A stretch of DNA of 64,000 nucleotides, taken from the NCBI GenBank assembly GCA_964495255.1, contig CAZBVC010000005.1:20496-84495 (forward strand), in the 5' to 3' direction. Of the stretch, positions 2,852-22,406 are shown piece after piece. The notes under the pieces were generated by a model that made no database searches, was not told the origin of the DNA, and was given only the letters and a program-made list of their open reading frames with translations. The stretch comes from an uncultured Oscillospiraceae bacterium. GTDB taxonomy: Bacteria; Bacillota; Clostridia; Christensenellales; CAG-138. Made by a program: the position numbers and the translations under genes. Position 1 is the first letter of the stretch. Every line of letters begins with the position of its first letter.

Positions 2852-3787
2852 TCATTCCTTGATGGCGCCCAATGTAATGCCGCTCGTGAAATAGGGTTGC
2901 AGGAACGGGTATACGCACATAATCGGCACCATGGCGCAGATAATCGTAGCCATGCGCAGCGCCATCGGCGGCGGCAGTTCCAGCCCGAGCGACACGGCGC
3001 CGTTGCGCACCTGATTCATCATGGACTGGTCGACGAGCATCCTGCGCAGAATCCAAACAAAGGGTTGCAGGTTCGTCTTGTTGGAGATGAACATCATGTA
3101 GTTGTAATAGTCGTTCCAGTTGATGACGGCGACAAACAGCGCGATGGCCGCCAGCATGGAGCGCGAAACGGGAACGATGATGCGGAAGAACACGCCTACG
3201 TCCGTGCAACCGTCAATGCGCGCCGCCTCTTCAAGCTCCTTGGGAACCGAGTATGAGAAATAGTTGCGCATGATGATGAAATAGGTCACGTTGAGGCCGC
3301 TCGGGATCACCATGACCCAGAACGTGCGCAGAAGCCCCAAATCCTTATAGAGCATATACTGCGGGATCAGACCGCCCGTGAAAAACAGGCAGAAGACGAC
3401 TAGCGCGTTGATAAACCGCATACCTTTGACATGCGACTTGCTGCAAGCGTAGGCCATCGTGCTGGTAACGAGCATGGTCAGAACCGTAGCCAAAAAGGTC
3501 TTTGCCACGGAGATCCACATGCTGTTGACAAACGCCTTGGTCGTAAAGATCGCTTTATAGTATTGCAAATCGACGCCGCCCAAGGGCAAAAGCATCAAAC
3601 CGCCCTTGGCGTATTCGGAATAGGGCGTGATCGAGGCGATGAGCACATACCACATGGGATATACGCACAGAATCGCGAACAGGATGCAGAAGACGTATAT
3701 AAACACGTCGTAAAAGTTGAAGCCGAGCTTCGAGAGCATCGTGCGGCGATATTTGGTTTGGGGTGCTTTGTTTAACATGCCTTCCAT
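2852..3787 (-). CDS. Carbohydrate ABC transporter permease (LplC-like)
   Basis: Track ORF 2852..4027 trimmed to ATG 3787 (GAGGAGAGGAG RBS, 10 nt after the upstream stop). Multi-TM protein with a binding-protein-dependent transport inner-membrane signature. Confidence 0.85.
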   Translation of the reverse strand: MEGMLNKAPQTKYRRTMLSKLGFNFYDVFIYVFCILFAILCVYPMWYVLIASITPYSEYAKGGLMLLPLGGVDLQYYKAIFTTKAFVNSMWISVAKTFLATVLTMLVTSTMAYACSKSHVKGMRFINALVVFCLFFTGGLIPQYMLYKDLGLLRTFWVMVIPSGLNVTYFIIMRNYFSYSVPKELEEAARIDGCTDVGVFFRIIVPVSRSMLAAIALFVAVINWNDYYNYMMFISNKTNLQPFVWILRRMLVDQSMMNQVRNGAVSLGLELPPPMALRMATIICAMVPIMCVYPFLQPYFTSGITLGAIKE

Positions 3788-3797
3788 GCTCCTCTCC

Positions 3798-4811: not shown

Positions 4812-4950
4812 GACCCGCTCCTTGCCAAATTATTAGTAATTATTAACGAACCGTTCCATGCCGAGATTTTCAACGAAAGCCGCCAAATCACAGGGCTATT
4901 CGTCGGAATTGTGCGACGTAACGCGATACGTCCGTCCTGTTTTCAAATGA

Positions 4951-5061: not shown

Positions 5062-5090
5062 TTGATTATTTACGTTGGATTATTTATAAT
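5062..5090 (+). promoter_or_regulatory. Putative sigma-A promoter of the 5155-14744 operon
   Basis: TTGATT (5062-5067), 17-nt spacer, TATAAT (5085-5090), about 65 nt upstream of ATG 5155. Confidence 0.5.
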
Positions 5091-5154
5091 GCGAATATGC
5101 GGGGGAGGCGGAGACGCCGTTCGCCCGCATGCTTCGGAAGGGAGCGTGAAGCGT

Positions 5155-6300
5155 ATGACGAAGAACATCGGGTTCATCGGTTACGGCCTGCGCTCGCGAA
5201 CGATGATGCAGGCGTTTTCCGCATTGGACGCGGATCTGCACGTCGCCGCGATTACCGACCCGCGCGCGGAGGAGATTCAAAGGGAGGTCGCGGAGGATCC
5301 GTTTTTTGACGGCGTGCGCTTTTACGACGCGCCCGAGAAAATGCTGGATAACGAGCGTTTTGACGGCGTTTTCGTCGGCACGCGCTGCTCAAAGCACGCT
5401 TCTCTTGCCGCGCTTGTGCTTGCGCGCGATGTTCCGCTGTTTCTCGAGAAGCCGGTCTGCATCAACGAGGAACAGTACGCGCTGCTCAAAAAAGCGGGCG
5501 CGGGCAAGGAGAAGCGCGTCGTCGTGTCGTTTCCGCTGCGCGTGAGCGCCGCAGTGCGCGAGATGAAGCGTATCGTGGACAGCGGCTCGCTCGGGCGCAT
5601 TACGATGGTGCAGGCGATCAACAACGTGCCGTACGGCAGCGTGTATTACCATAGCTGGTATCGTGATCCGACGGAAACGGGCGGATTGTTTTTGCAGAAG
5701 GCGACGCACGACGTCGATTATATTCGCTATCTCATCGGAGAAACGCCGATTGACGCGTTTGCGCGCACGGCGAAGCTGCATTTTCGCGGCGACAAGCCCG
5801 CCGACCTGCATTGTCCGGATTGTGAGGAATACCGCACCTGCCTCGAAAGCAGCTATGTCGTGGGACGTATATTAAAGGAAGACGTTCAGGGCGACTGCTG
5901 CTGCTTTGCGGTTGACACGGGCAACGAGGACGAGGCGAGCGCGATCTTTACCTGCGAAAGCGGCGCGATCATCAGCTACAATCAGAATTTTATGGTCAAG
6001 AAGGGCGCGGGACGGCGCGGATGCAGGCTCATCGGCGACGCGGGCAGCGCGGAATTCGACTTTTATACGGGCGTCGTGCGCGAGGATCGCTACTTTACGC
6101 CGCAGACCGTCACGCATACGTTCAGCCTCGGAAACGGCGCGCATTTCGGCGGCGACGAGCGCTTGGCGCAGGCGTTTTTGGACGTGATGGACGGCAAACC
6201 GTCCTCGTCGGATCTCACGGACGGGCTATCCAGCGCGGCGGTGTGTCTCGCGGCGCGCGCGTCCGCGGAAAGCGGCGGAATCGAGCGCGTGCGGCTGTGA
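5155..6300 (+). CDS. Gfo/Idh/MocA family NAD(P)-dependent oxidoreductase
   Basis: Track ORF 5062..6300 trimmed to ATG 5155 (GGAAGGGAG RBS). Rossmann motif IGFIGYG and FLEKPV (EKP motif). Confidence 0.85.
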   Translation: MTKNIGFIGYGLRSRTMMQAFSALDADLHVAAITDPRAEEIQREVAEDPFFDGVRFYDAPEKMLDNERFDGVFVGTRCSKHASLAALVLARDVPLFLEKPVCINEEQYALLKKAGAGKEKRVVVSFPLRVSAAVREMKRIVDSGSLGRITMVQAINNVPYGSVYYHSWYRDPTETGGLFLQKATHDVDYIRYLIGETPIDAFARTAKLHFRGDKPADLHCPDCEEYRTCLESSYVVGRILKEDVQGDCCCFAVDTGNEDEASAIFTCESGAIISYNQNFMVKKGAGRRGCRLIGDAGSAEFDFYTGVVREDRYFTPQTVTHTFSLGNGAHFGGDERLAQAFLDVMDGKPSSSDLTDGLSSAAVCLAARASAESGGIERVRL

Positions 6301-6339: not shown

Positions 6340-7179
6340 ATGCTGACGAATCTGGCGGAGATCTTGAAGGATACGCGAAAAAAGGGCTATGCGGTGGGCT
6401 TGTTCAACTGCGTAACGCTCGAAATGGTCAAAGGAATCCTCGAGGCGGCGGAGGAGATGAAAAGCCCCGTGATCATCGGGCCCGCGGAAAGGCTGTTAAG
6501 GAGCGCGAGCCTGGCGGACTATGCCGACATGATGCGCGGCATGGCGAAACGCTGCGGCGTGCCCGTCGTGCTGCATCTCGACCATGGGTTTACGCCCGCG
6601 CTCGTGCGCCAAGCGGTGGATCTCGGATTCGGCTCGGTCATGTACGATTGCAGCCTGCTTCCGTTTGAGGAGAACATCAAAAACGTGCGCGAGATGGCGG
6701 CGTATGCGCATCGGGCGGGCTGCTCGATCGAGGCGGAGCTGGGGCATGTCGGCTCCAACGGCTCGGCGGAGGACGCGGGCAGCGGCTCGATCTATACCGA
6801 TCCGAACGACGCGGCGCGCTATGCGTCCGAAAGCGGCTGCGACGCGCTTGCGGTCGCGGTGGGCACGGCGCACGGCGTATATAAGGAAACGCCGCGCCTT
6901 TCCTACGACGTTTTGGCGCAAATCGCTTCCGCATGCCAAACGCCGCTCGTTTTGCACGGCGGTTCGGGGCTTTCGGACGAGGCGTTTACCGAGACGGTGC
7001 GCTGCGGCGTTTCGAAGATCAACATCTTTACGCATAACAACCTGACTGCGGCGCGCGCGGCAAACGAGGCGTTTACCGAGGAAACGGGCGCGTTCGAGCT
7101 CATGCCGACCGTGATAAACGCGGTGCGGCGGGAAACCATGCATTTGATGACGGTGTTCCAAAGCGACGGAAAGGCGTAA
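6340..7179 (+). CDS. Class II (metal-dependent) ketose-bisphosphate aldolase family protein (FBA/KbaY/GatY/IolJ-like)
   Basis: 279 aa with LHLDHG and LHGGSG motifs and the typical N-terminus ...KKGYAVGLFN. Confidence 0.85.
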   Translation: MLTNLAEILKDTRKKGYAVGLFNCVTLEMVKGILEAAEEMKSPVIIGPAERLLRSASLADYADMMRGMAKRCGVPVVLHLDHGFTPALVRQAVDLGFGSVMYDCSLLPFEENIKNVREMAAYAHRAGCSIEAELGHVGSNGSAEDAGSGSIYTDPNDAARYASESGCDALAVAVGTAHGVYKETPRLSYDVLAQIASACQTPLVLHGGSGLSDEAFTETVRCGVSKINIFTHNNLTAARAANEAFTEETGAFELMPTVINAVRRETMHLMTVFQSDGKA

Positions 7180-7265: not shown

Positions 7266-8756
7266 ATGCGGCGCGATCGGATACTCGTGTTCGACGTTGG
7301 GACAAGCGCGATCAAGACCGCGCTGTTCGACGCGGCGCTCAACCCGCTCGCCCTTTCCGCAACGGAATACCCGATGCGCGCTTCGGGCGCGTTTGTCGAG
7401 ACCCGGCCGACGGACTATCTCGACGCGATGGCAAAGGGCGTATCCAAGCTGAAAGAAACGGCGGACGTGTCGCGCGCGGCGGCAATCTGCATCACGACGC
7501 AGGGCGAAACGCTGCTTGCCGCGGATGAAGACGGCGCGGCGCTGTCTCCCGCGATCGTTTGGCTGGACGCGCGCGCTTTCGAGGAGGCAAAGCGATTGTC
7601 CGCCGCGTTCTCCGAAGAGACCTTCTATGAAACAACGGGGCTGCCCGAAATCACGGCTGCCCTGCCGCTTGCAAAGCTCATGTGGCTGAAACAAAATCAA
7701 CCCGAAGAATGGGAGCGTGCGCGGTATTTTCTTTTGCTGGAAGATTATCTTCGGTTTCAGCTGACGGGCGTTTGCGTTTCGCACGCGAGCCTTCTTACCA
7801 GCAGCGGCTATTTGAACGTCCGAACGGGAATGTATTGGAACGAGGCGCTTTCCTATGCGGGTGTGCCGCTCGAAAAGCTGCCCGAAATCGTTCCGTCGGG
7901 CGCGCAATGCGGCGTGCTTACGCGCTTTGCGGCGGCGGCGCTGGGCTTGGAAAGCGGCGTACCCGTCTACGCGGGCGCGATGGATCAAACGGCGGCGCTG
8001 CTGGCCGCTTCCTGCGGAAAAGCGGGTGCGGTCTGCGAAACAACGGGCACGGCGCACGTCGTCGCGGCGGCGACAAACGAGCCGTACTTCTCAAAAACAC
8101 AGCGATTGACCGTCTATCGCCACGCTTTAAGCGGGCAATATCTCTATCTGCCCATCGGGAATACGGCGGGCATGGCGTATCGCTGGTTTCGCAACACATT
8201 CGGGCACGAAAACGAGGATTACGCCTGCCTCGATCGTCTTGCCGAAACCGTGACGGCGGGCTGCGAAGGGGTAACGTTTTTGCCGTTTCTTTGCGGCGCG
8301 GCGGACCCGCTTTCCCTGCCGGACGCAACGGCGTGCTTTTTCGGGATGCGGCTGTCAACCACGCGGGCGCAGCTTGCGCGCGCCGTGTTGGAATCGACGG
8401 GCTATGAGCTTCGACTTTTTCTCGGGCTTTTGAAGGAGCGCGGCTGCCCGATTGACAGCGTCAGCGCGCTCGGCGGGGGCGCGACCAGCCCGCTTTGGCT
8501 GCAAATGCGCGCGGATATTGCCGAAACGACGCTGCATGTTCCCCGCGTGACGGAAGCGACCGCGGCGGGCGCGGCGCTTTTGGCGGGCTGGGGCGCGGGC
8601 TTGATCGAAAAGGGCGAATACCCGCGCATCCTGTCGGAGAAGCAAGCCGTATTCGAGCCGAATCCCGCAAACAAAGCGGCGTATGACGACGCGTTTTTAC
8701 GGTATCAGGCGCTGTGCAGGGCGCTGACCCCGCTCTTTGCGGGCAAAAAAATGTGA
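7266..8756 (+). CDS. FGGY family carbohydrate kinase
   Basis: 496 aa. N-terminal ILVFDVGTSAIKT actin-like ATPase motif and overall xylulokinase-like layout. Confidence 0.85.
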   Translation: MRRDRILVFDVGTSAIKTALFDAALNPLALSATEYPMRASGAFVETRPTDYLDAMAKGVSKLKETADVSRAAAICITTQGETLLAADEDGAALSPAIVWLDARAFEEAKRLSAAFSEETFYETTGLPEITAALPLAKLMWLKQNQPEEWERARYFLLLEDYLRFQLTGVCVSHASLLTSSGYLNVRTGMYWNEALSYAGVPLEKLPEIVPSGAQCGVLTRFAAAALGLESGVPVYAGAMDQTAALLAASCGKAGAVCETTGTAHVVAAATNEPYFSKTQRLTVYRHALSGQYLYLPIGNTAGMAYRWFRNTFGHENEDYACLDRLAETVTAGCEGVTFLPFLCGAADPLSLPDATACFFGMRLSTTRAQLARAVLESTGYELRLFLGLLKERGCPIDSVSALGGGATSPLWLQMRADIAETTLHVPRVTEATAAGAALLAGWGAGLIEKGEYPRILSEKQAVFEPNPANKAAYDDAFLRYQALCRALTPLFAGKKM

Positions 8757-8818: not shown

Positions 8819-10216
8819 ATGAACGAACCGAGAAAGCCGCGCCTTGGCGTGCTGGCGCTGATGCTCGAAGCATACGAGCCGCTGTTCCCCGGCATCACGG
8901 CGTCGCAGGAGCGCTATCTGACGGGCGTGCTGAACGCGCTCAAACAAACGGCGGATTTCGTGTTTCCCAAGATCGCCCTCTGCCGCGAGGATATCGAGGG
9001 CTTGGTCAAGCAGTATAATGCCGACGATCTGGACGGCGTCGTGATCTTCCTCCTGTCCTATTCGCAGGGGCAATACCTCGTTCGCGCCATGCAGGGGAAT
9101 CGTCTGCCGCTCGCGCTGGCGCTGATTCAACCCGACGAAACGGCGGACGAAGCGTTTGGTGAATGGGAGCTGACCGTCAATCAGGGCATTCACGGCTCGC
9201 AGGACAACGCAAACTGCCTCATGCGCGCGGGCATTCCCTGCGCGTTTTACGCGGGCAGCCGTCATGGCGACGGGCTCATGAAGTTCCTTGCGGATTTCGG
9301 CGCGGCGGCGCAAACGAAGCGCGCGCTGCAAACGATGCGCATCGGCGTGATCGGCAAGCTCGCGGGCATGGGGGACGTAATCACCGACGACATGGCGTTT
9401 TACCGCAAGCTCGGCCCGGAATTCGTTTACGATTCGATCGGCGCGGTGACGCGCTGCTGCGAGAGCGTTACAAAAGAGGAGATCGAGAAGCGCGTTTCGT
9501 TCGACCGAACGATCTTCGAGGTGGACGAGAAGCTGCCGCCCGAGCGCCACGCATACGCCGTGATGCTCTATCTGGGCTTGAAAAAGTATCTCGAAGAGAA
9601 CGGCTACGCGGGCTTTACGGCGCATTTTGAGGAATTTGGCGCGGACGGGCGCTATACGCAGCTACCCTTGCTTGCGGCGAGCCATCTGCTTGCCGACGGT
9701 TATGGTTACGCGGCGGAGGGCGACGCTTCCTGCGCGGCGATGGTCGCGGCGATGACGCTCCTTTGCGGGCAGGCGAACTTTTCCGAGATGTATATGATGG
9801 ATCTTGTGCGCGGCGCGATTCTGCTTTGTCACGCGGGCGAGGGAAACTGGGCGACGGCGCGGCGCGACAGGAAGCCGTTTTTGATGGATCGTGTGTTCAA
9901 CGAAGGAGGCTTGTCCAATCCGCCTACGCCGATCTTTACGCCCGAGCCTGGGCGCGCGAGCGTGATGAGCCTTGTGCATGTAAGCGGCGAAAGGTTCCGC
10001 CTTGTTTGCGCGCATGGTGAAATATTGGACGAATGCGGGCTGAAAAAATGCGACATGCCGTACCTGTTTTTCCGTCCCGATTCGGGCGTCGAGCCGTGCG
10101 TCAAGCGCTGGCTCGAACTGGGCGGCACGCATCACGAAACCATCGTGCAAGGCGACTTTGCATCGCGGATCCGCCTTTTCTGCCGCCTACTGGACGTTGA
10201 ACTTTGCGAGATCTGA
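8819..10216 (+). CDS. L-arabinose isomerase (AraA) family aldose-ketose isomerase, substrate unknown
   Basis: 465 aa. By-eye colinearity with AraA: FTAHFE, GYGYAAEGD, FSEMY, LCHAGEGN, GGTHHET. The Glu/Glu/His/His positions appear retained. Confidence 0.75.
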   Translation: MNEPRKPRLGVLALMLEAYEPLFPGITASQERYLTGVLNALKQTADFVFPKIALCREDIEGLVKQYNADDLDGVVIFLLSYSQGQYLVRAMQGNRLPLALALIQPDETADEAFGEWELTVNQGIHGSQDNANCLMRAGIPCAFYAGSRHGDGLMKFLADFGAAAQTKRALQTMRIGVIGKLAGMGDVITDDMAFYRKLGPEFVYDSIGAVTRCCESVTKEEIEKRVSFDRTIFEVDEKLPPERHAYAVMLYLGLKKYLEENGYAGFTAHFEEFGADGRYTQLPLLAASHLLADGYGYAAEGDASCAAMVAAMTLLCGQANFSEMYMMDLVRGAILLCHAGEGNWATARRDRKPFLMDRVFNEGGLSNPPTPIFTPEPGRASVMSLVHVSGERFRLVCAHGEILDECGLKKCDMPYLFFRPDSGVEPCVKRWLELGGTHHETIVQGDFASRIRLFCRLLDVELCEI

Positions 10217-10233
10217 TGAAAAGGGAGGAAACC

Positions 10234-11781
10234 ATGCTGCAAAACATTCGGCTTTCGTTGACGGATCTGGTCGGCAGGGACTATATTTGCGCGGTCTGTG
10301 CGGCGCGAAGCGCGCTGACGGGGGAGGATGAAAAGGCGCTGCTTGCGTATGCGAACACGCCCGTTGCGTTTTATCCCGAACCCTTTGCCGCACGACAGGA
10401 CGCGCTGATGGAGCGGATCGGGCGTTCGATCGCGCAGGCGTTCCCCGATGCGGATGCGGGCGCGCCGACCGATTCCTACCGCAAGGCGCAGCATAGCTTT
10501 GCCGCGCCGCTGTCGGCGTTCGGCTGCTTCCGCGTCGGCGAGGACGGCAGGCTGTATTTTGCGGGCAAGAGTGAGCATTATCATATTCCGCTCGGGCACG
10601 CGTTCCCCGGCTACGCGCTCATCGAGCGCGCAAAGGCGCTCGGCATTCCGAACGCGACACATAACAACACCCGCGGCTATATTACGCGCCTGACCGAGCG
10701 CCGGCTTGTCGCGGCGGCAAACGGGGTTGATCCCGACGACGCGAAGGCGATGGACGCGCTGCTGCAAAAGCGCGAAAGCGGCGTGTTGAATCGCGTCGTC
10801 AACCTGGAAACGGGTTCGCTCGCGGTCGAAGCGGCGCTGAAAATGATGCTCTCGCGCTTCTATCCGATCGACAAGGAGGAAGCGAAATATGCTTCCCGTG
10901 TGCCCGTGTTCCTCGTCATGGCGGATCACGCGGGCGGGATTACGGCGAATTATCACGGAACGACCGTGCTTGCGCAGACGCTGCGCGGGCTTTGGGGGAG
11001 CTATCTGAAAAAGGCGGAGGAGGCGGGACTTTACCGCGTGGTCGGCGTGCCGATCGGCGACGAAAAAGCGTTTGCCGCCGCCATAGAGAAATGGAACACG
11101 CCTCCGTTTAAGACGGCGGGCTTCTGCCATGAGATCATCATGATGAACTATGGCGGCATACGGCAGGAGGAAGCGTTTTTGCAGGCGGCTTACCGCATGT
11201 GCAAAGCGAGCGACACGCCCGTGCTCTGCGACGAAATCCAGTCCTGCGCATGGTACGACGGGCTGTTCCTTTTCCGCAAATACGGCTTGACGCCCGATTT
11301 TGTATCTGTCGGCAAGGGCTTCCCGGGCGGCAATTATCCCGCGAGCCGCATTTTGGTCAGCGGCGCGTTTGATTCTTTGAATCAGTTTGGCGCGCTGGTC
11401 ACGAACGGGCAGGAGGAGCTTGCGAGCCTCGCCTACCTCGTCACGATGGCGTTTATCGGGGAAAACAGGGCGCATATCGAAACCTGCGGCGCGTACTATC
11501 ATGAAAAGCTCGTTTCGCTTGCGAAGAAGCACGATTCCGTCTGCACGGGCTGCATGGGCGACGCGCATATGAGCGCGCTGTGTTTTTCGGATGTGAATCA
11601 GGCGGTTGCGTTCTGTACGCGGCTGCAAAATGAGTTCGGCGTGGATATCAGCGCGCAGACGTATAAACCGAGCTGTCCGCCCGTTGCGCTGACAAAGCTG
11701 CCGCTCATCGTGTCCGAACGGATGATCGACCTGCTCATTGCGGCGATGGATCGCTGCCTGAACGAAATGGAGAGGGAATAA
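10234..11781 (+). CDS. Class III (fold-type I) aminotransferase-like PLP enzyme, atypical
   Basis: Track ORF 10204..11781 trimmed to ATG 10234 (AAGGGAGG RBS). Has DEIQSC and VGKGFPGG (PLP-lysine context). The N-terminal extension is about 100 aa. Confidence 0.7.
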   Translation: MLQNIRLSLTDLVGRDYICAVCAARSALTGEDEKALLAYANTPVAFYPEPFAARQDALMERIGRSIAQAFPDADAGAPTDSYRKAQHSFAAPLSAFGCFRVGEDGRLYFAGKSEHYHIPLGHAFPGYALIERAKALGIPNATHNNTRGYITRLTERRLVAAANGVDPDDAKAMDALLQKRESGVLNRVVNLETGSLAVEAALKMMLSRFYPIDKEEAKYASRVPVFLVMADHAGGITANYHGTTVLAQTLRGLWGSYLKKAEEAGLYRVVGVPIGDEKAFAAAIEKWNTPPFKTAGFCHEIIMMNYGGIRQEEAFLQAAYRMCKASDTPVLCDEIQSCAWYDGLFLFRKYGLTPDFVSVGKGFPGGNYPASRILVSGAFDSLNQFGALVTNGQEELASLAYLVTMAFIGENRAHIETCGAYYHEKLVSLAKKHDSVCTGCMGDAHMSALCFSDVNQAVAFCTRLQNEFGVDISAQTYKPSCPPVALTKLPLIVSERMIDLLIAAMDRCLNEMERE

Positions 11782-11783: not shown

Positions 11784-12926
11784 ATGTCAAATCAAGTGAA
11801 ATTCGGCGTAATCGGCTGCGGACTCATGGGCCGCGAGTTTGCGAGCGCATCCATGCGCTGGCTGCATCTGAAAGCGGATCTGCCGCGCCCGACCATCGTC
11901 GCCGCATGTGACCTTTCGGACGCGAACCTCGATTGGTTCCGCCGCGACCCCGACGTGCGCTTTTTTTACCACGACTATCACGAGCTGCTGCAAAACTCCG
12001 AAATCGAAGCGGTTTACTGCGCCGTACCGCATCATCTGCACAGCGCGGTCTATTGCGACGTTATCCGCGCGGGCAAGCATCTGATCGGCGAAAAGCCGTT
12101 CGGCATGGACATTGCCGCGATGAAGGAGATTCGTGCGGCGATGGCGGAAAATCCGCAGGTGTTCGTGCGCTGTGCGAGCGAGTTTCCGTTCTATCCCGCC
12201 GTGCAGCAGATTGCGCGCTGGTACAAAGACGGCGCGTTCGGTCAGATTTTGGAGGCGCGCTTTGCCATCAAGCATTCGTCCGACATGGATCTGAACAAGC
12301 CGATCAACTGGAAACGCACGGTTTCGGCAAACGGCGAATACGGCTGTATGGGCGACCTTGGCATCCATACGCAGCATCTGCCGTTTCGACTGGGTCTAAA
12401 CCCGCAAACCGTAAGCGCGCAGCTCGCAAACCTTGTGAAAACGCGTCCCGATCGAGACGGAAACCCCGTGCCCTGTGAAACATGGGACAATGCGCTTTTG
12501 CTCTGCGGCGGCGAAAACGGCGCGGGCGACCGTTTCCCGATGCTGTTTGAGATGAAGCGCATGGCGCCCGGCTGCACGAACACGGTCGAATACGAAATCA
12601 GCGGGATGCTTTTTTCCGCACGGTTTACGACGGACGACCCCAACGCCGTTCACTTTACGAAAAACGACGGGCGCGAGCAGGCGTGGAGCCGCCTTGTGAT
12701 CGGCAACAAGCCCCTGTATCCCACCGTTACGGGCGATATCTTCGAATTTGGTTTTTCGGATTCGATTTTGCAGATGTTTGCCGCGTTCGTTTCCGAGCTG
12801 CGGGGCTTGCCCTGCGAATTCGGCTGCTTTACGCCCGACGAAGCGCTGGAAAGCCATCGCCTTCTGACCGCCGCGCTCGTTTCGGAGCGCGAGGGCCGCG
12901 CGGTTATGCTGAACGAGATCGATTGA
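11784..12926 (+). CDS. Gfo/Idh/MocA family oxidoreductase (second copy)
   Basis: KFGVIGCGLMG Rossmann motif and GEKP motif. Starts 3 nt after the upstream stop. Confidence 0.85.
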   Translation: MSNQVKFGVIGCGLMGREFASASMRWLHLKADLPRPTIVAACDLSDANLDWFRRDPDVRFFYHDYHELLQNSEIEAVYCAVPHHLHSAVYCDVIRAGKHLIGEKPFGMDIAAMKEIRAAMAENPQVFVRCASEFPFYPAVQQIARWYKDGAFGQILEARFAIKHSSDMDLNKPINWKRTVSANGEYGCMGDLGIHTQHLPFRLGLNPQTVSAQLANLVKTRPDRDGNPVPCETWDNALLLCGGENGAGDRFPMLFEMKRMAPGCTNTVEYEISGMLFSARFTTDDPNAVHFTKNDGREQAWSRLVIGNKPLYPTVTGDIFEFGFSDSILQMFAAFVSELRGLPCEFGCFTPDEALESHRLLTAALVSEREGRAVMLNEID

Positions 12927-14839: not shown

Positions 14840-15598
14840 TTATCCGCGCAGCGCGGGCAGACCCGCGTTTGCGCCCGCAAGCAGCAGCCCGACGTCGCTG
14901 TTCCACATGTTCATTTGCATACCCGCCTTGATCCAGGGCAGAAGCGGAGCGGCGGAGCCGAAATGCGCGCCGCTGAATTTGTCGTGCTTCGCGGCGGACG
15001 CGACGACCGCAGCGATTGCCGAAACGATCTCGGGATCGTCAAATTGCCCGAGCTTGCCATAGTCCTGGCTTAGGTCGTTGGGCCCGATCAGCGCAACGTC
15101 AACGCCGTCAACCGCCATGATCTCGTCGATATGCCGAACGCCCGCTCGGCTTTCGATTTGGCAGAGCAAAAGCGTTTCGTCGTTGGAAGCGGACATATAT
15201 TCGCGCCCGTTCACCTTGCGAAAATCCGTGTGCGGGCGGGAAAGCGACACGCCGCGATGCCCAAGCGGGGCGTATTTTGTACAGTCAACGAGCATACGCG
15301 CCTGTTCCGCCGATTCCGTGTTGGGCAAAAGCAGCCCGTTCGCGCCCATCTCTATATATTTCAGCGCGTGCTCGCGCCGCATTTCGGGGATGCGCACCAA
15401 GGCAGGCATACCGATTCCGCGCGCAACGGCGATCAAATTCGCCGCCTCCCGCGTGGTGAAGGAACCATGCTCGCAGTCGATGATGAAAAAGTCGAAGCCC
15501 GCGTTTTGCATGAGCTTTGCAAGATCCACGCAGGAAAACGTCGTTACCATGGTGCCAATCAGCTTTTCGCCGCCGCGCAGCCGTGCTTTCAGGTTCAT
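14840..15598 (-). CDS. HpcH/HpaI family 2-keto-3-deoxy-acid aldolase
   Basis: Track ORF 14840..16144 trimmed to ATG 15598 (252 aa). Motifs FFIIDCEHG, CQIES, IGPNDLS. Confidence 0.8.
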   Translation of the reverse strand: MNLKARLRGGEKLIGTMVTTFSCVDLAKLMQNAGFDFFIIDCEHGSFTTREAANLIAVARGIGMPALVRIPEMRREHALKYIEMGANGLLLPNTESAEQARMLVDCTKYAPLGHRGVSLSRPHTDFRKVNGREYMSASNDETLLLCQIESRAGVRHIDEIMAVDGVDVALIGPNDLSQDYGKLGQFDDPEIVSAIAAVVASAAKHDKFSGAHFGSAAPLLPWIKAGMQMNMWNSDVGLLLAGANAGLPALRG

Positions 15599-15626: not shown

Positions 15627-16640
15627 TCACGCAAGGTCGATAAGCGCGACGGATTCGATCGAGCAAGGATCGCTCTTGGCAAGCGCCTCGACCTCTGCGC
15701 GCGTGGGCAGCGCAAAACCGATTGCCCCGCGCTTTTTGACCACAAGCGTTCCCGCACAGTTGCAAAACAGCGCCGCGTCCCGAAGCGACATGCCGCGCTG
15801 CAAAGCGCAAAGAAGCGCCGCGTCGAACGTATCGCCCGCGCCCGTTGGGTCGATGACGGGAACGTCGATCCCGCCGCATAAAACAACGCTGCCGCCGGCG
15901 CTGAGAACCGCGCCGTCCTTATCCCGCGTGAGCGCAACGACGGAGGGTCCCATCGCGTGCAGCGCGCGCAGAACGTTGCCGACGGTCTGTTCGCCCGTAA
16001 TGAAGCGCGCCTCGTCCAGCGTGGGCGCAACGACGTCCGCCAAACACAGCGCGTCGCGCATACGCGTTTGCGCCGCCTCGCTTTGACCCATTTCGAAGCG
16101 AATGTTCGGATCAAAGCTGAACAATACGCCGTTTGCCTTGGCAAAACGCGCCGCCGCCATGCTCGCCTCGCGCATCCGCTCGTTGAGTTCGAGCAGCATG
16201 CCGGGAAAGTGAAGCGCGTAAGCCCGCTTCAAATAGGCGTAATCCAGCTCGTCCTCGCCAAAGCGGCTGCCGACCGAATCGTTGCGGTAATATTGATAGT
16301 TGCGCTTACCGCTTCCGAGATGTTCCAAAAACGCAAGCCCGATTTGCCCCTCGTCGGAATGAACGACGCGGCTCAAATCGACGCCCGTTTCCGCGATCGT
16401 GTCGTAAACCATGCGGCTCAACGCGTCGTTGCCGATCTTGCCGAGAAAGCCGCTTTTCGCGCCCAAAAGCGCCGCCGCGCATGCGCAGATGCCCGCGCTG
16501 CCGCTCGCCGTTTTGAGCACGGTGCCCGGCGATGCAATACGCCCGTCAAAATCGGTCGGGATCAAATCGACGAGAAGCTCCCCCAGCGTCAAGATGATTC
16601 CGTTCGGGTTTGCGGAGCGTGCAATACTGTTGTAATCCAT
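15627..16640 (-). CDS. PfkB family sugar/keto-deoxy-sugar-acid kinase
   Basis: Track ORF starts at TTG 16694. I prefer ATG 16640 (MDYNS...). Ribokinase-like signature VIDPTGAGDTF near the C-terminus. Confidence 0.8.
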   Translation of the reverse strand: MDYNSIARSANPNGIILTLGELLVDLIPTDFDGRIASPGTVLKTASGSAGICACAAALLGAKSGFLGKIGNDALSRMVYDTIAETGVDLSRVVHSDEGQIGLAFLEHLGSGKRNYQYYRNDSVGSRFGEDELDYAYLKRAYALHFPGMLLELNERMREASMAAARFAKANGVLFSFDPNIRFEMGQSEAAQTRMRDALCLADVVAPTLDEARFITGEQTVGNVLRALHAMGPSVVALTRDKDGAVLSAGGSVVLCGGIDVPVIDPTGAGDTFDAALLCALQRGMSLRDAALFCNCAGTLVVKKRGAIGFALPTRAEVEALAKSDPCSIESVALIDLA

Positions 16641-16722
16641 ATCCACCACCGATGCGCTGCCGCGCTTTCTTATTCGGACTTTGTATGTTGACAATCAAAA
16701 AACACTAAAAGTTCTAATCAAT

Positions 16723-16843: not shown

Positions 16844-16872
16844 TTGACAAGAACGGCGGCGTACTCTATAAT
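16844..16872 (+). promoter_or_regulatory. Consensus sigma-A promoter of the LacI-family regulator operon
   Basis: TTGACA (16844-16849), exactly 17 nt, TATAAT (16867-16872). Confidence 0.6.
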
Positions 16873-16936
16873 TTTATTAGATTTATTAGCCGATGCGAAT
16901 CGGTCTGATCGGATTTGTTAATAGGAGCATATTTAT

Positions 16937-18043
16937 ATGAACGCCAAGAAAAAAGTTACGTCCGGCGACGTCGCCGCGCGCGCGGGCGTCTCGCAGTCCG
17001 CCGTCTCGCTGATTTTGAACGGCAGCAGCAAGGTCGTGTTCAACGAGGAGACAAAGGAGCGCGTGATTGCCGCGGCGGCGGAGCTCGGTTACCAAACGCC
17101 GAAACGAAAAAGGCGGCGCGCTGCGGAAAAGGGAGGTCTGCTCCTTTTGTTTACGCCGACGCTCGTCAACCCGTTTTACGCGGAGATTGTGCAGACGACC
17201 GAGACATACGCCGAGGCGTGCGGCTATCGCGTGCTCGTATGCAACACGCTTCGCAAACCCGAGCTGGAACGCTATTATCTCGATATGTTTCTCAACAGCC
17301 GCATCGACGGCATCATTTATACGTTTTTACCGAGCTTTCCCGAGCGCATCGAGGCCTTGTGCGGCAGCGTACCCGTCGTGCTGATCGGCGAGAAGCGCTC
17401 CAACGCCTCCATTTGCTCCATCGAGCTGTCCAACGAGCGGGCGGGCGCCATCCTTGCCGACCATTTGTATCAGCTTGGGCATCGCGCGTTCGCGTTTATT
17501 TCAACGCCGTTCAACCAGCTCACGCTTGCGCGTCAGCAGCGGCTGGAAGGTATACGGCAGTTTGCGCGGCAGCACGCGCTTCCCGCAAGCTGTTTGACGA
17601 TACTCGTTCCCGATTCCCAAACGGAAACCGACAGCCCGCATGGCGACATCCCGTATGAATACGCGATCGGCAGAAGCCTGATCGGGCGCGCGCTGGACAG
17701 CGGCTTGAACGCGACGGCGATCATCGGCGTAAACGACATGACCGCGTCGGGCGTAATATCGGAGCTGAAAGCGCGCGGGTTCGCCGTCCCGCAGGATTTC
17801 TCCGTTTGCGGGTTTGACAATATCTTTCCGTCGCTGATTTCTCACCCGCCGCTGACCACGATCGATCACTATCTCGAGGTGCGCTGCAAAGCCGCGGTGG
17901 ATATGATTCTTTCGCAGAAGCGCGATATGTTGGAAACGCCCGTGCAGCCGATCATCAATAAGGTCGAGTATTCGCCTCGGCTGATCGTTCGGGAATCGAC
18001 GGGCGTTGCGCGGCAGGGCGCGGCAAAGGGGGAGAACGCATGA
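16937..18043 (+). CDS. LacI family transcriptional regulator
   Basis: N-terminal HTH VTSGDVAARAGVSQSAVSLILNG, followed by a periplasmic-binding-protein-like sugar-sensor domain. Confidence 0.9.
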   Translation: MNAKKKVTSGDVAARAGVSQSAVSLILNGSSKVVFNEETKERVIAAAAELGYQTPKRKRRRAAEKGGLLLLFTPTLVNPFYAEIVQTTETYAEACGYRVLVCNTLRKPELERYYLDMFLNSRIDGIIYTFLPSFPERIEALCGSVPVVLIGEKRSNASICSIELSNERAGAILADHLYQLGHRAFAFISTPFNQLTLARQQRLEGIRQFARQHALPASCLTILVPDSQTETDSPHGDIPYEYAIGRSLIGRALDSGLNATAIIGVNDMTASGVISELKARGFAVPQDFSVCGFDNIFPSLISHPPLTTIDHYLEVRCKAAVDMILSQKRDMLETPVQPIINKVEYSPRLIVRESTGVARQGAAKGENA

Positions 18044-18942
18044 TTCGGCGGCGTGACGCAGAGAAACCGGACGCTTTGCCGCTCGTTGTGCCTACGACGC
18101 GCCGTGCGCTGTTTCGGCAGGCGCTCTCCGTGCGGTTCGGCTCAATGATTCCGATCAACCTCGTGTGCTTCCTGTTCTACCTGCCCGCGCTCGTTTGGAC
18201 GGAAATGTCGCTTCGCGCGATTCCGACGACGGATGGGGGAAACGCGGCGACCTTTGCATCCGAACAGTTGATCGGCTCGTATCTGTTCGGGCTTTTGATC
18301 TGTTTCACGATTGCGGGCCCGATGCAGGCAGGGCTGGCGCGGCTCATGCGAAACTGGGCGCGCGGCGAAAACTGCTATCCGTGGGATACGCTTTTTGGCG
18401 GCATGAAGCAGAATTTGGGACAGAGCCTGCTTGCGGGGGCGCTGTCGGGCGTCGTTCCGCTGCTTTCGTACAGCGTGTTTGCCTATTACGGGCAGATGAG
18501 CGAGACGGCATCGCTGCTGTATTTGATTCCGCTTGGTCTTTGCGGCGTTTTCAGCATCATACTTATCATGATGCTGAATCTGATTTGGACGCTCATGGTC
18601 ACCTATACGCTGCCGTTCGGGCGGCTGATCAAAAACGCGTTTTTGCTTACGATTCTCGAATTGCCGCGGAGTTTTTTGATGATGCTTTGCTCGCTGATCC
18701 CCGCTTTGATCGCGTTCGGGCTGTCGTTTCTGCTTCCGTCCCATACGGGGCTGATCGTCGTGCTGTGCGGCCTGTACTACGCCGTGATCGGGCTCGCGCT
18801 CGATCGCTTCCTCGCCGCGTCGTTTGCCAATCGCGCGTGCGAGAAGCATATGAACAGCCGCATCGAGGGGGCGCGCGTGGACATCGGGCTTGCGTCCGAG
18901 CGGGTCGCAAACCCGGCGGAGACGCAGGAAAAGGCGGGCTGA
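18040..18942 (+). CDS. Polytopic membrane protein, YesL/DUF624-like
   Basis: 300 aa with several TM segments. ATGA overlap with the LacI gene. This family commonly accompanies sugar-utilisation regulators and ABC systems. Confidence 0.6.
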   Translation: MIRRRDAEKPDALPLVVPTTRRALFRQALSVRFGSMIPINLVCFLFYLPALVWTEMSLRAIPTTDGGNAATFASEQLIGSYLFGLLICFTIAGPMQAGLARLMRNWARGENCYPWDTLFGGMKQNLGQSLLAGALSGVVPLLSYSVFAYYGQMSETASLLYLIPLGLCGVFSIILIMMLNLIWTLMVTYTLPFGRLIKNAFLLTILELPRSFLMMLCSLIPALIAFGLSFLLPSHTGLIVVLCGLYYAVIGLALDRFLAASFANRACEKHMNSRIEGARVDIGLASERVANPAETQEKAG

Positions 18943-19090: not shown

Positions 19091-20329
19091 ATGGCACAGA
19101 AAGTTATGAAGGGCGACGCTTCGGGTCGCGGCGCGGTCGAAGGCTACCGCGTTTCCATTCCCTCGCGTCAGCGTCCGTATACCGAGGCGGAGATCGCGGT
19201 CGTCGTAGACGCGATGCGTAATGTCGAAGGGCAGACGCAGGGCGACAAGCAGGAGCAGTTCCAAAAGGATTTTGTGGCGTTTACGGGCGCGAAGCACGCG
19301 TTCGCGGTTGCAAACGCAACGGATGCGCTGAGTCTTGCTGCGACGCTGTGCGGCGTCAAGCCGGGCGACGAGGTTATTATTCCCGCGTACACGTTCTGCG
19401 CGTCGGCGATTCCGTTCGGCAAGGCGGGCGCGAAGATCGTTTGGTCGGATATCGACCCCGAGACTTGGGTTGCCGACCCGAAGGACATCGAGCGCAAGAT
19501 CACAGAAAAGACCCGCGCCATCGTCGTTGTGCATCTGCTCGGCATGCCCTGCGATATGCCCGCCGTGATGGCCGTTGCAAAGAGGCATAACCTCAAGGTC
19601 GTCGAGGATTGCGCGCAGGCGCTCGACGCCCGCATCAACGGGCAGCACGTCGGCACGTTCGGCGACTACGGCTGTTTCAGCTTCCACGGCGCAAAGACCA
19701 TGACCACGCTGGGCGAGGGCGGCATGCTGACCGTTTCCTCGGATGCGGACGCGGCGCTCGTGCCCGGCATTCGCCATAACGGCTGCTGCGGGTTCCATTA
19801 TGAGCGCGCGCGCTACTGGGTGCCCGCGATGAGCAACGTGGATATGGATATCGAGGGCTTCTGGCCGAACAACTTCTGCATCGGCGAGGTTCAGTGCGCT
19901 TTGGGCAGCGAGGAACTGAAATCTCTTACCGCGTGCTCGGATCGGATCATCGCGCAGAACGACAGGCTTCGCGAGCTGCTTGCCGACGTGCCCGAGATCA
20001 CGTTCAACAAGATTCCCGTGGGCTATCGCCATGTGCGCCATCAGTATGTGCAGCATTTTGACGGCAGCGCGTTCGGCAAGGATCGCAACGATCTGCTCGA
20101 TCTGCTGACAAAGAAATACGGCATCCGCAGCATCGTGCAGTATTACCCGCTGTATCGCTATCCGCTGTTTCAAAAGCTCGGCTGCGGCGAACATGATTGC
20201 CCCGTGCTGGAAGGCTGGTGGGACAACACGTTCTCCGTACCGATGTGGTGCGGCATGGACGACGAAACGCTCGTTACCATCGCGGATTCCGTGAAAGCAG
20301 CCATTGCGGATTTGAAGGCGGCGAAATAA
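19091..20329 (+). CDS. DegT/DnrJ/EryC1/StrS family (sugar/cyclitol) aminotransferase
   Basis: 412 aa with an AGGAGG RBS. Motifs NATDAL and FSFHGAKTMTTLGEGG (PLP-lysine context). Confidence 0.85.
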   Translation: MAQKVMKGDASGRGAVEGYRVSIPSRQRPYTEAEIAVVVDAMRNVEGQTQGDKQEQFQKDFVAFTGAKHAFAVANATDALSLAATLCGVKPGDEVIIPAYTFCASAIPFGKAGAKIVWSDIDPETWVADPKDIERKITEKTRAIVVVHLLGMPCDMPAVMAVAKRHNLKVVEDCAQALDARINGQHVGTFGDYGCFSFHGAKTMTTLGEGGMLTVSSDADAALVPGIRHNGCCGFHYERARYWVPAMSNVDMDIEGFWPNNFCIGEVQCALGSEELKSLTACSDRIIAQNDRLRELLADVPEITFNKIPVGYRHVRHQYVQHFDGSAFGKDRNDLLDLLTKKYGIRSIVQYYPLYRYPLFQKLGCGEHDCPVLEGWWDNTFSVPMWCGMDDETLVTIADSVKAAIADLKAAK

Positions 20330-21237
20330 TGAACGGCGGCGCAAAGCAAATCAAGGGCGGGGTACTTGTCCCCGCCTTTTCGCCCTGCGCGGCGGACGAT
20401 ACGTTTCTTCCCGACGCGTTTGCTTCGTCGCTTGACGCGCTGTTGTCGGAGCAGCTCGACGGCGCGTATCTTTGCGGCGGCACGGGCGACGGCGCGAACA
20501 TGCGCGTAGACGAGCGCAAAGCCGCTATGCGCATCGGCGTGGAGCTGTGCAAAAAGCACGGGAAGATCTCGCTTTGTCAGGTTGGGGCGAACACCATGCG
20601 CGAGGCGCTGGAATTGGCGGAATATGCCGCAGCGTGCGGCGCGGACGGCATATCCAGCATACCGCTTGCAGGCTATTCGCATGCGGATCAGCTGAATTAC
20701 TACAAGGCGATTATCCGCGCATCCGGCCATATGCAGACGGTTTTATACTATATGCCGCAGCCGGGCGCGACCTTCACGCTTTCCGAGGTATTGGAGACGC
20801 TTTCCATCGACGGCGTAACGGGCGTGAAATGCTCGACGAACGACTTCTTCTTTACGCAGCAGCTCATGGAAGCCAAGCCGAAGAACGTTGTGCTGTTCAG
20901 CGGCAAGGACGAATACCTTGCGCCCGCCGTCGTACACGGCGCGGAGGGCGGCATCGGTATGTGGGCGACGGTGTTTCCGCGCGTATACGCCGCGATCTAT
21001 CATAAAGCGAAGGCGGGGGCGCTGGATGAGGCGTTCAACCTGCAACGCGACCTCAACGCGCTTTGCTGCGTGGTCATGCGCCGCGGCCTGCCGGAAAGCT
21101 ACGCCTGTATCCTGCATTATCTCGGCAAGCCTGATTGTGTGTTCCGCAGACCGCAGCCGCGTTTCGACAAGGCGTTTTACGACGCGTTTCTTCCCGAAGC
21201 GGCGCCGCTGATCGACAAACTGATTTTGGACGCCTGA
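20329..21237 (+). CDS. DapA/NanA family class I (Schiff-base) pyruvate lyase
   Basis: Track ORF 20197..21237 trimmed to ATG 20329 (TAATG overlap with the upstream gene), 302 aa. Motifs GGTGDG, LYYMP and GVKCS. Confidence 0.8.
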   Translation: MNGGAKQIKGGVLVPAFSPCAADDTFLPDAFASSLDALLSEQLDGAYLCGGTGDGANMRVDERKAAMRIGVELCKKHGKISLCQVGANTMREALELAEYAAACGADGISSIPLAGYSHADQLNYYKAIIRASGHMQTVLYYMPQPGATFTLSEVLETLSIDGVTGVKCSTNDFFFTQQLMEAKPKNVVLFSGKDEYLAPAVVHGAEGGIGMWATVFPRVYAAIYHKAKAGALDEAFNLQRDLNALCCVVMRRGLPESYACILHYLGKPDCVFRRPQPRFDKAFYDAFLPEAAPLIDKLILDA

Positions 21238-21256
21238 ACGGCAAAAGGAGAACGGC

Positions 21257-22174
21257 ATGAACAGAATTCCCAAAACGGAGATCGAACTGTTTCCGATTAC
21301 GCTCGGAACCATGACTTACGGCTCGCCCGTCGCGTTTGACGACGCGGTGCGGCTGACCGAATACGCCGTTTCGCGCGGCGTCAACCTCATCGACACGGCG
21401 AACATGTACGAGGGCTATAACCGTTATGCGGGCAGCGCGGGCGGCGTGGCGGAGGAGATCATCGGCAAGGCGCTTTCGTCCATCCCGCGCCAAAGCGTGA
21501 TGATCGCCACAAAGGTCGGCATGAAGGTCGGCACGGCGGCGGAGGATGAGGGAACCTCTCCCGCGGCGATCAAGAAGCAGCTCGACAAGAGCCTTTTGCG
21601 CCTGAAAACGGACTATATCGACTTGTATTATCTGCATCGTCCCGACGCGAGCGTTCCGTATGCGGAGATCGTTTCCGCGTTGGCGGACGCAATCAAGGCG
21701 GGCAAAATCCGCCATTACGGCGTGAGCAACCATTCCGCCGAGCAGCTTGCCGCGCTTTTGCAAGCGGCGGACGAGAACGGCTTGCCGCGTCCCGTGGTCT
21801 GCCAGCCGCCGCTGAGTTTCCTCAGACAGGACGCGCTTTCCGCGCTCCTTCCGCTTTGCGCAAAGGAGGAAATTGCGGTCATTCCGTATCAGATCTACCA
21901 AGGCGGCTTGCTGACGGGCAAGTATCAGCGCGGCATGGAGGCGCCCGCGGGTTCCCGAGCGGCGGAAAAGCCGGATTGGCTCGGCCTGCCGAATGCGGAG
22001 TTGTTCGACAAGCTGGAAGCGTTTGAGGCGACCGGGCGCGAGCGCGGGCTGACCATGGCGCAGTACGCCGTGCGTTGGGTGCTGGAACAACCCGCCGTGG
22101 TTTCCGCGATCGTGGGCGTGAAGACAAATGCACAGGTGGACGCCGCGATCGAGGCGGTGAACGCGGGCAACTGA
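21257..22174 (+). CDS. Aldo/keto reductase
   Basis: 305 aa. LIDTANMYEGY, DLYYLHRPD and HYGVSNHS are typical AKR motifs. Confidence 0.9.
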   Translation: MNRIPKTEIELFPITLGTMTYGSPVAFDDAVRLTEYAVSRGVNLIDTANMYEGYNRYAGSAGGVAEEIIGKALSSIPRQSVMIATKVGMKVGTAAEDEGTSPAAIKKQLDKSLLRLKTDYIDLYYLHRPDASVPYAEIVSALADAIKAGKIRHYGVSNHSAEQLAALLQAADENGLPRPVVCQPPLSFLRQDALSALLPLCAKEEIAVIPYQIYQGGLLTGKYQRGMEAPAGSRAAEKPDWLGLPNAELFDKLEAFEATGRERGLTMAQYAVRWVLEQPAVVSAIVGVKTNAQVDAAIEAVNAGN

Positions 22175-22406
22175 GTCTTTCTTCCCCCAAAATCAAGTTC
22201 CAACGCAAGCGGCGCTTTTTAAGGCATCGCTTTTTCGATGCGTTTCGGCAAGCAAACGTCAATCGTGCGCGGAAAACGGAGAACATTTCAAGGCGATTCG
22301 CAAAAAACGCCCTACGACTGCGCATATCACGCATGGACGCCCATACAAACCTGTGTTATATTCTACGTATGGAAAATGTGCAAAATAACATTATGGATCA
22401 AAACGC

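Follow-up and report, generated by a model that had tools for sequence, protein, structure and literature searches.

A DegT-family aminotransferase and an aldo/keto reductase as the core of a probable catabolic island shared by several bacterial phyla

Enzymes of the DegT family are almost automatically annotated as builders of cell-surface or antibiotic sugars. We analyzed a DegT gene from a 64,000-nt stretch of DNA of an uncultured Oscillospiraceae bacterium (assembly GCA_964495255.1, contig CAZBVC010000005.1, positions 20,496 to 84,495; this whole stretch is called the window below), which is followed by genes for a pyruvate lyase of the DHDPS/NanA family and for an aldo/keto reductase (AKR). 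A preliminary description of this DNA had proposed that the aminotransferase is used in the degradative direction, and comparative genomics lends support to this proposal. On balance, we favor the view that DegT, the lyase, and AKR form, within a conserved catabolic island, the branch responsible for deamination and cleavage. The island is widely shared yet uncharacterised, and no description of such a DegT-lyase-AKR module was found in the full-text literature.

The nearest precedent in logic is the KdnB/KdnA system of Shewanella, in which free Kdo is oxidized to 8-oxo-Kdo and then transaminated to Kdo8N. To our knowledge, it is the only characterised system of this oxidise-and-transaminate kind. 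By analogy, the window locus would also combine a DegT-family enzyme with a dedicated alcohol/aldehyde oxidoreductase for a free, non-nucleotide ulosonic acid. In particular, its aminotransferase clade is genetically paired with an oxidoreductase and with an enzyme acting on the C3-C4 bond of ulosonic acids, and a sister clade adjoins, or is fused to, Fe-alcohol dehydrogenases (Fe-ADH) in NeuB loci. However, the partner in the window is AKR and not Fe-ADH, and the context, with an importer, a lyase, and kinases, is catabolic. KdnA (PDB 5k8b) is no closer in sequence to the window DegT than others are (125 bits versus 156 for the best), and no solved chain, KdnA included, has the loop specific to the DegT clade described below.

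The nan cluster (NanA, NanK, NanE, sialidase, and NanS) resembles the window island in bringing together an importer, a sialidase-fold protein, a SASA esterase, and a NanA-like lyase. It differs in that the island lacks NanK and NanE, NanE having no match above the cut-off anywhere in the genome (83% complete), and instead uses two aminotransferases, GFO/IDH enzymes, AKR, and an isomerase-kinase-aldolase branch. PseC, WecE, perosamine synthase, and ArnB are the best sequence and fold matches of the window DegT and share with it the fold, the pyridoxal phosphate (PLP) lysine, the aspartate, and the GEGG motif. Nevertheless, the window DegT is only 24-33% identical to them, misses every equivalog cut-off, has Cys in place of the Arg of an N-S-R motif as well as two private insertions, and has no dehydratase or nucleotidyltransferase partner nearby. 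Finally, the mosA/mosB genes of the Sinorhizobium rhizopine locus, which we take to be a DapA-like and DegT-like pair acting on a nucleotide-free polyol ketone, serve as a lead only; presumably that system differs in being biosynthetic, making scyllo-inosamine, and in lacking AKR and glycosidases.

The DegT clade and its partners

The window DegT matches PF01041 over profile positions 5-359 of 360 (288.9 bits, cut-off 19.8) and keeps the PLP lysine K202 (SFHGAKT), D173 (EDCAQ), and the GEGG motif, both residues being invariant in 82 of 82 aligned DegT sequences. In this family, lysine rather than histidine at the PLP site marks a transaminase and not a 3-dehydrase. The generic N-S-R-L-D motif is absent and reads N-F-C-I-G; its Arg is present in 96% of 45 generic DegT members and is Cys (Cys263 in the window DegT) in the catabolic and sister clades. 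Likewise, the lyase retains Lys167 for the Schiff base, Tyr140, a GTG carboxylate loop (T52-G53), and a GKDE (GxDE) motif, all of which align with motifs of Staphylococcus aureus NanA (GVKYT, YAIP, and GFDE), while the GAIGST stretch of that enzyme corresponds to GGIGMW. AKR scores 232.7 bits with PF00248 and carries near its N-terminus the DTAxxY motif with the tetrad Asp and Tyr, as LIDTANMY. All three proteins look intact from these features. The overlap of DegT with the lyase gene in a TAATG, claimed in the preliminary description, is real, one base being common to the DegT stop TAA (20327-20329) and the lyase ATG (20329-20331), and the open reading frame (ORF) list and profile searches both place AKR 3' of these two genes, as claimed there (Table 1).

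None of the three proteins reaches an NCBIfam equivalog cut-off, the best matches (PseC, NanA, and Tas) all being far below. For DegT the scores were 221.7 bits with PseC (cut-off 423.5), 212 bits with PRK11706 (cut-off 375), and 158 bits with ArnB (cut-off 631); for the lyase they were 128.4 versus 281 bits and 117.5 versus 382 bits for NanA. The predicted DegT model (predicted template-modelling score, pTM, 0.80) has the fold type I sugar-aminotransferase fold, and its first 20 structure matches (TM 0.73-0.87, target-normalised) include Fic25, WecE, and perosamine synthase. PDB sequence searches with DegT, the lyase, AKR, the propellers, and two other island enzymes, GFO/IDH/MocA oxidoreductase 1 (GFO1) and a class III aminotransferase-like protein (AT3), returned family-level matches only.

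We collected 80 DegT-related loci from species-representative genomes, together with loci from exact-protein and plasmid look-ups, and compared their ORFs with the window proteins. The identity to the window DegT steps down from 62-89% to 43-50% and then to 42% or less. The first group forms one 31-member clade (support 99 in the Shimodaira-Hasegawa-like approximate likelihood ratio test, SH-aLRT, of a quick maximum-likelihood tree), referred to here as the catabolic clade. The two clades at 43-50% identity are its nearest kin, with a joint support of 98, and a long branch leads to the generic DegTs. The catabolic and sister clades share two insertions (232-237 and 249-259) and a nearly identical private loop (residues 232-263), WVPAMS-VD...GFWP-NFCIGE, and the clade-specific segment 215-290 matched no PDB chain. 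Members of the catabolic clade occur in at least six phyla, namely Bacillota, Chloroflexota, Actinomycetota, Spirochaetota, Planctomycetota, and Armatimonadota, and the taxonomy in the tree is mixed, with an Actinomycetota row amid Clostridia and a Spirochaetota row amid Chloroflexota, which fits transfer of the locus. The distribution is patchy, the clade DegT being found in two of 399 genomes in a class-wide sampling.

The gene neighborhoods divide the clades in the same manner. Among the 33 catabolic-clade loci sampled, many of them on short contigs, AKR is present in 25 and a DHDPS-type gene in 23. Clade members are surrounded by ABC importers, LacI, GntR, or AraC regulators, glycosidase-like propellers (BNR_2 or BT1020-like in several loci), esterases, and pyruvate aldolases. 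Their annotated neighbors include no 4,6-dehydratase, nucleotidyltransferase, or glycosyltransferase, save for a NeuB/CMP-transferase set in two Anaerolineae loci (L025 and L030). AKR, DHDPS, SASA, and propeller neighbors are confined to this clade with the exception of AKR in one sister-clade locus (L051), the only one with AKR among the other 51 sampled DegT loci; none of the 45 generic loci has any of the four. A survey of homolog neighborhoods, which the preliminary description had suggested, thus places the clade in importer, regulator, and aldolase loci, glycan-biosynthesis neighbors belonging to the separate sister clade.

In many Clostridia the locus has a common layout. One strand encodes the class III aminotransferase, the AraA-like isomerase, FGGY kinase, class II aldolase, and GFO1; the other encodes two permeases, a binding protein, DegT, DHDPS, AKR, a 600-aa propeller, a SASA esterase, a 692-aa protein, and a small BNR_2 protein. 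Every part of this consensus locus is also present in the window genome, where the triad now lies about 14 kb from the importer, behind a LacI gene and a membrane gene. In this genus, therefore, the DegT-lyase-AKR block has left its place between the genes for the binding protein and the propeller. A minimal form of the locus in Anaerolineae comprises a binding protein, two permeases, (MFS), a BT1020-like propeller, DHDPS, DegT, and AKR, with a GntR regulator. The complete consensus locus was also seen on an unannotated 386-kb record, 'plasmid 12' of the cultured Subdoligranulum variabile (L001; OY725846.1 24457-43662). Christensenella and Microbacterium are further carriers with cultured members.

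Within the genus, the order membrane gene-DegT-lyase-AKR is kept in the 14 examined loci that reach far enough upstream; in L023 no membrane gene was detected. Stop and start codons overlap in the window (TAATG) and in L023 (TGATG) only, and eight other genus relatives whose junction was compared have a DegT-lyase spacer of 20-110 nt with its own GGAG. An aminoglycoside 3-N-acetyltransferase-family gene recurs in five loci (e.g., L019:13211-14110 and, on the minus strand, L048:7832-8755) and in one genus relative stands directly 3' of AKR; it was not found in the window genome. Its recurrence fits free-amine intermediates.

The phyletic profile of the genus links DegT with other island genes. 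DegT is present in 12 of 24 genomes. Of these 12, 11 also have the propeller and the class III aminotransferase, neither of which was found in any of the 12 genomes without DegT. The co-occurrence extends to G421, with 870 kb between the genes, and to G403, in which they lie on separate contigs. This profile is supportive, not decisive.

The aldolase partner is less constant than the other two proteins. Across the clade, DegT is 62-89% and AKR 49-72% identical, whereas the DHDPS partner belongs to three lineages that share only 21-35% identity. One is that of this genus, the second, NanA-like, occurs in most Clostridia and Actinomycetota, and the third, in Anaerolineae, is DapA-like. All three retain the catalytic Lys, Tyr, and Thr. 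In L005 a class II HpcH protein is the only aldolase found, and in L027 the only aldolase candidate is a NeuB-like protein after DegT; counting these two, 25 of the 33 loci have a DHDPS-type, HpcH, or NeuB-like gene. The window holds both the DHDPS-type and the HpcH aldolase. The slot is filled by non-orthologous proteins, and therefore what is needed would be a reaction on a 2-keto-3-deoxy acid and not one particular protein. This distribution suggests that the pathway requires the cleavage of such an acid to pyruvate by any aldolase, and that DegT and AKR make up a specialised pair with a generic aldolase slot beside it. Taken together, the comparisons support a transferable, catabolic island of several phyla, whose core DegT-AKR pair is tied to pyruvate-aldolase chemistry. 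NeuB-family proteins of 272-294 aa that lack a SAF domain were noted near the clade DegT in three loci (L025:14114-14998, L027:11229-12047, and L030:9006-9890).

The sister clade has glycan-biosynthesis neighbors, namely NeuB, CMP-transferase, family 2 glycosyltransferase (GT2), Wzy, and flippase genes. Four of its members adjoin Fe-ADH, and three of these four have NeuB as a further neighbor, along with CMP-transferase, GT2, and LicD genes. A search for longer DegT proteins revealed a natural fusion of DegT with Fe-ADH (P0122, 753 aa, L104:8001-10262), the DegT domain of which is 46% identical to the window DegT, gapless over 391 residues. Its locus encodes a NeuC-like epimerase, CMP-transferase, a KdsC/KDN-9-P-type phosphatase, NeuB, Wzy, flippase, and methyltransferases, and no 4,6-dehydratase, making P0122 a candidate maker of an undescribed amino-ulosonic acid. 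The Fe-ADH domains of the sister clade are nearest to primary-alcohol/aldehyde enzymes. By analogy with KdnB/KdnA, our reading is that the sister clade would aminate a free ulosonic acid after NeuB, and that the catabolic clade would reverse both steps, with AKR replacing Fe-ADH. The same search gave P0123 (856 aa), in which a generic DegT, 37% identical to the window DegT, is joined to a GFO/IDH/MocA oxidoreductase. In two unrelated glycan-type loci, URO-D-like proteins of the uroporphyrinogen decarboxylase family adjoin DegT (L039:11269-12474 and L051:7253-8485).

Proposed route and its alternatives

In the route that we propose, the ABC system would import an oligosaccharide with a sialic-acid-like (2-keto-3-deoxy, ulosonic) sugar bearing a free amino group, and cytoplasmic sialidase-fold propellers, the SASA esterase, and the GH42-like hydrolase would dismantle it. 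DegT would transfer the amino group to a 2-oxo acid, and AKR would reduce the aldehyde or ketone left behind to a hydroxyl at the expense of NAD(P)H. The DHDPS/NanA-type lyase, and perhaps HpcH, would cleave the 2-keto-3-deoxy acid to pyruvate and an aldose, which would pass through the AraA-like isomerase and the FGGY kinase to the class II aldolase. DegT and AKR may act on the ulosonic acid or on its aldose; probably, they strip the amino group from the imported sugar acid before the lyase splits it to pyruvate. The gene identities, catalytic residues, synteny, clade structure, co-occurrence within the genus, and the fused Fe-ADH relative are the observations behind this route, and from them we infer the catabolic direction, the pairing of transamination with a following reduction, its order relative to the lyase, and the nature of the substrate.

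Several observations weigh against this route. No N-deacylase or N-deacetylase is conserved in the island, whereas sialic, pseudaminic, and legionaminic acids in their common forms carry N-acyl groups; therefore, either the substrate carries a free amine, or a deacylase is encoded elsewhere or in an unrecognised form. The second aminotransferase (AT3) and the two GFO/IDH enzymes are left without a step. The solved DegT folds all score alike, at 24-32% identity, and do not discriminate. The 596-aa propeller and the small BNR_2 protein are only putative sialidases as regards the Arg triad; the latter reads YHMPSL, judged by eye with no alignment, at what we take to be the position of the RIP motif of GH33 sialidases, and may not be a true sialidase. 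The genomes of the genus are kin, and their phyletic profile overstates independence. Finally, L025 and L030 encode on the other strand a NeuB-like protein, a CMP-transferase-HAD fusion, and a sulfotransferase, and a salvage role is conceivable in these two loci.

The gene order DegT-lyase-AKR would itself be the order of reactions if the island served an oxidative amino-sugar route. A GFO/IDH enzyme, or a short-chain dehydrogenase/reductase (SDR) with a lactonase, would oxidize a hexosamine or 6-deoxyhexosamine to a 2-amino-2-deoxy-aldonate; DegT, as an ammonia-lyase/dehydratase or as a transaminase, would convert it to a 2-keto-3-deoxy acid; and the DHDPS-type aldolase would release pyruvate and glyceraldehyde or lactaldehyde, this aldehyde being reduced by AKR. 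In agreement with such a route, genes for an SDR, an NAD-epimerase-type dehydrogenase, and a Lactamase_B_3 lactonase-like protein lie by the module in Anaerolineae and other loci, an MR_MLE dehydratase adjoins it in L020, GFO1 is conserved in 11 loci, and DHDPS-family L-2-keto-3-deoxyfuconate aldolases occur in anaerobes. The 692-aa protein is GH42/GlmA-like, and GlmA acts on free-amine glucosaminides, which is a lead only. However, DegT carries all hallmarks of the DegT aminotransferases (SFHxxK and GEGG), and we know of no DegT-family alpha-amino-acid lyase. Its closest relatives are NeuB-linked and ADH-fused, which suggests action at a carbonyl/alcohol position of an ulosonic acid and not on an alpha-amino acid, and DegT stays by AKR where DHDPS is absent or elsewhere (L005, L024, and L044). 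We consider the oxidative route improbable. It is likewise doubtful that DegT works after the lyase, on an amino-aldose (4-amino-4,6-dideoxyhexosamine) derived from a pseudaminic- or legionaminic-type diamino nonulosonic acid or on a different free 4-amino sugar, for example Ara4N, reversing a PseC/LegC/ArnB-type step on a nucleotide-free sugar, with AKR reducing the 4-keto sugar for the isomerase-kinase-aldolase branch. The best NCBIfam match, PseC, though far under its cut-off, and the top structural matches, which are C4 aminotransferases (WecE, perosamine synthase, and ArnB), would agree with this order. Two aminotransferase-reductase pairs (AT3-GFO2 and DegT-AKR) would suit a diamino sugar, the AraA-like isomerase and FGGY kinase would suit a 6-deoxyhexose or pentose, and pseudaminic acid is common on Clostridium flagella (PMC13317340). 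On the other hand, no N-deacetylase is conserved, and the Fe-ADH fused to DegT in the sister clade has its nearest kin among primary-alcohol/aldehyde and not among secondary-alcohol enzymes. A further difficulty is that PF01116 aldolases normally need a distal anionic group.

A biosynthetic or salvage module, taking up a precursor and making or modifying an amino sugar destined for a surface glycan, would be in line with the overwhelmingly biosynthetic character of the DegT family, with the biosynthetic sister clade, and with the opposite-strand genes of L025 and L030. We regard it as very unlikely for the window. No glycosyltransferase, nucleotidyltransferase, flippase, or polymerase is present in the island of this genome or in the consensus loci, the regulators are of the LacI, GntR, and AraC sugar-utilisation types, and the neighbors are hydrolases, kinases, and aldolases. 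In addition, NeuB has no match in the genome, at 83% completeness, and since matches to both NeuB and NanE are missing there, the window DegT is probably not building a nonulosonic acid.

The deaminating route, if correct, would have consequences beyond this locus. A multi-phylum clade in an import-and-cleave island would show that the DegT family is also degradative and would correct thousands of annotations, such as 'perosamine synthetase' or 'dTDP-4-amino-4,6-dideoxygalactose transaminase'. The textbook NanK, NanE, NagA, and NagB steps would be replaced in the island by transaminase-reductase pairs. The island occurs in the gut genera Subdoligranulum, Christensenella, and Allofournierella and may define an unrecognised nutrient niche, possibly of bacterial sialic-acid-like sugars, while the ADH-fused biosynthetic sister clade offers a concrete way to find the substrate sugar. 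More tentatively, and with the chances rather against it, one can suppose that bacterial glycans widely hold undescribed ulosonic or nonulosonic acids with a free amino group, made in the sister clade by Fe-ADH and DegT after NeuB, in the manner of Kdo8N, and consumed via a reversed DegT together with AKR. Anaerobes of the gut, wastewater, and soil would then own a dedicated pathway that regenerates a plain KDN/Kdo-type acid for the lyase. In that case, a catabolic enzyme of the DegT family would be described for the first time, along with a new nutrient niche of the sialic-acid-like kind.

Layout and control of the island

The triad is one block of an island of about 27 kb, which begins some 3.7 kb to the left of the window and ends at position 22174 (Table 1).

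Table 1. Genes and control signals of the island within the window
Feature	Position	Strand	Evidence or remark
SASA-family (sialate O-acetylesterase-type) gene, 5' part	2..847	-	tblastn of locus representatives; Pfam SASA on representative
Large solute-binding lipoprotein of ABC importer	1022..2803	-	47-75% identical proteins adjoin permeases in 12 loci
Two ABC permeases (BPD_transp_1)	2852..4811	-	Pfam; conserved in 13-17 loci
Tandem TTATTAG-N3-TTATTA word	4830..4845	+	Divergent permease/GFO1 control region
GFO/IDH/MocA oxidoreductase 1 (GFO1)	5062..6300	+	Pfam; 60-69% identical in 11 loci
Class II ketose-bisphosphate-type aldolase	6340..7179	+	Pfam, NCBIfam cbbA subfamily
FGGY sugar kinase, xylulokinase-like but under equivalog cut-off	7266..8756	+	Profiles
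L-arabinose-isomerase-like (AraA-like) aldose-ketose isomerase	8819..10216	+	Profiles
Atypical class III aminotransferase-like protein (AT3), N-terminal extension	10204..11781	+	Profiles
GFO/IDH/MocA oxidoreductase 2 (GFO2)	11784..12926	+	Profiles; only in this genus and L029
Cytoplasmic six-bladed propeller, sialidase-like fold, C-terminal domains, 596 aa	12954..14744	+	Predicted model
HpcH/HpaI class II pyruvate aldolase	14840..15598	-	Pfam, NCBIfam; start codon read
PfkB sugar or keto-deoxy-acid kinase	15627..16694	-	Profiles
Consensus sigma-70 promoter TTGACA-17-TATAAT, then tandem TTATTAG-N2-TTATTA word	16844..16888	+	Before LacI
LacI-family regulator	16937..18043	+	Pfam, NCBIfam
Membrane protein, weak MusI-family match (ABC-importer accessory, YesL-like)	18040..18942	+	NCBIfam
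DegT-family PLP aminotransferase of catabolic clade, 412 aa	19091-20329	+	PF01041 E 8e-86, alignment, tree, model
DHDPS/NanA-family class I pyruvate lyase	20329-21237	+	PF00701 E 7e-37
Aldo/keto reductase, conserved DegT partner	21257-22174	+	PF00248 E 6e-69
Weak hairpin GCATCG-CTTTTT-CGATGC	22224..22241	+	Read in sequence; terminator scan did not flag

To the left of the window (G000 C5:16794-21342) lie the rest of the SASA gene, the GH42/GlmA-like protein, whose label rests on look-alikes and is a lead only, and the small BNR_2 propeller (G000 C5:16794-17837), which is 85% identical between distant Clostridia; housekeeping genes follow beyond it. The 590-aa binding lipoprotein, which has no Pfam match, likely starts at an internal MKKLLALL with a Cys lipobox. 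The two permease ORF calls (2852-4027 and 3798-4811) overlap, and their starts are therefore provisional. The model of the 596-aa propeller (pLDDT 85) has GH33 sialidases as its best PDB matches (E ~1e-12) and also matches pseudaminidase, KDNase, and GH93. The island contains no ROK kinase, and NagA genes of the genome are located outside it. As stated in the preliminary description, a LacI/YesL pair precedes the triad, the weak MusI-family match of the membrane gene fitting 'YesL', and a nucleotidyltransferase, dehydratase, or glycosyltransferase is likewise absent from the annotated island genes of the window.

The LacI protein has an N-terminal helix-turn-helix domain (PF00356) and a periplasmic-binding-protein-like effector domain (PF13377, PF00532). 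In the whole 64 kb there are just two copies of the tandem TTATTAG word, against 0 expected by chance, and both lie in island control regions; the second (16874-16888) lies immediately 3' of the -10 box in the LacI promoter and recurs ahead of LacI in the relatives L019 and L022. The shared word suggests one regulator for the whole island. LacI operators are usually palindromic, unlike this direct repeat, and no convincing palindromic LacI operator was seen in the control regions, only the tandem direct word. A divergent promoter with an 11/12 match faces the PfkB gene.

The 148-nt gap between the membrane gene and DegT shows no promoter-like site, and its predicted RNA fold lacks terminator-like stability (z 0.06 versus shuffles), so that a transcript from LacI to AKR, and with it LacI control of the triad, is plausible. 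In genus relatives, an AraC gene in the opposite orientation lies between the membrane gene and DegT, and there the triad must be capable of transcription from a promoter of its own. Two wastewater metatranscriptome runs contain contigs that are identical to parts of the genes for the membrane protein, DegT, the lyase, and AKR; none of these contigs spans a gene junction, and DNA carry-over is possible.

The weak hairpin behind AKR may mark the end of the operon. It is followed, together with a promoter-like site, by a HAD-IB gene (22407-22973), which lacks conservation among relatives and probably does not belong to the island. Further downstream are an aldehyde:ferredoxin oxidoreductase and polyferredoxin ORF (23078-25608, minus strand) and a Firmicute class 3 fructose-1,6-bisphosphatase (25762-27810, plus strand).

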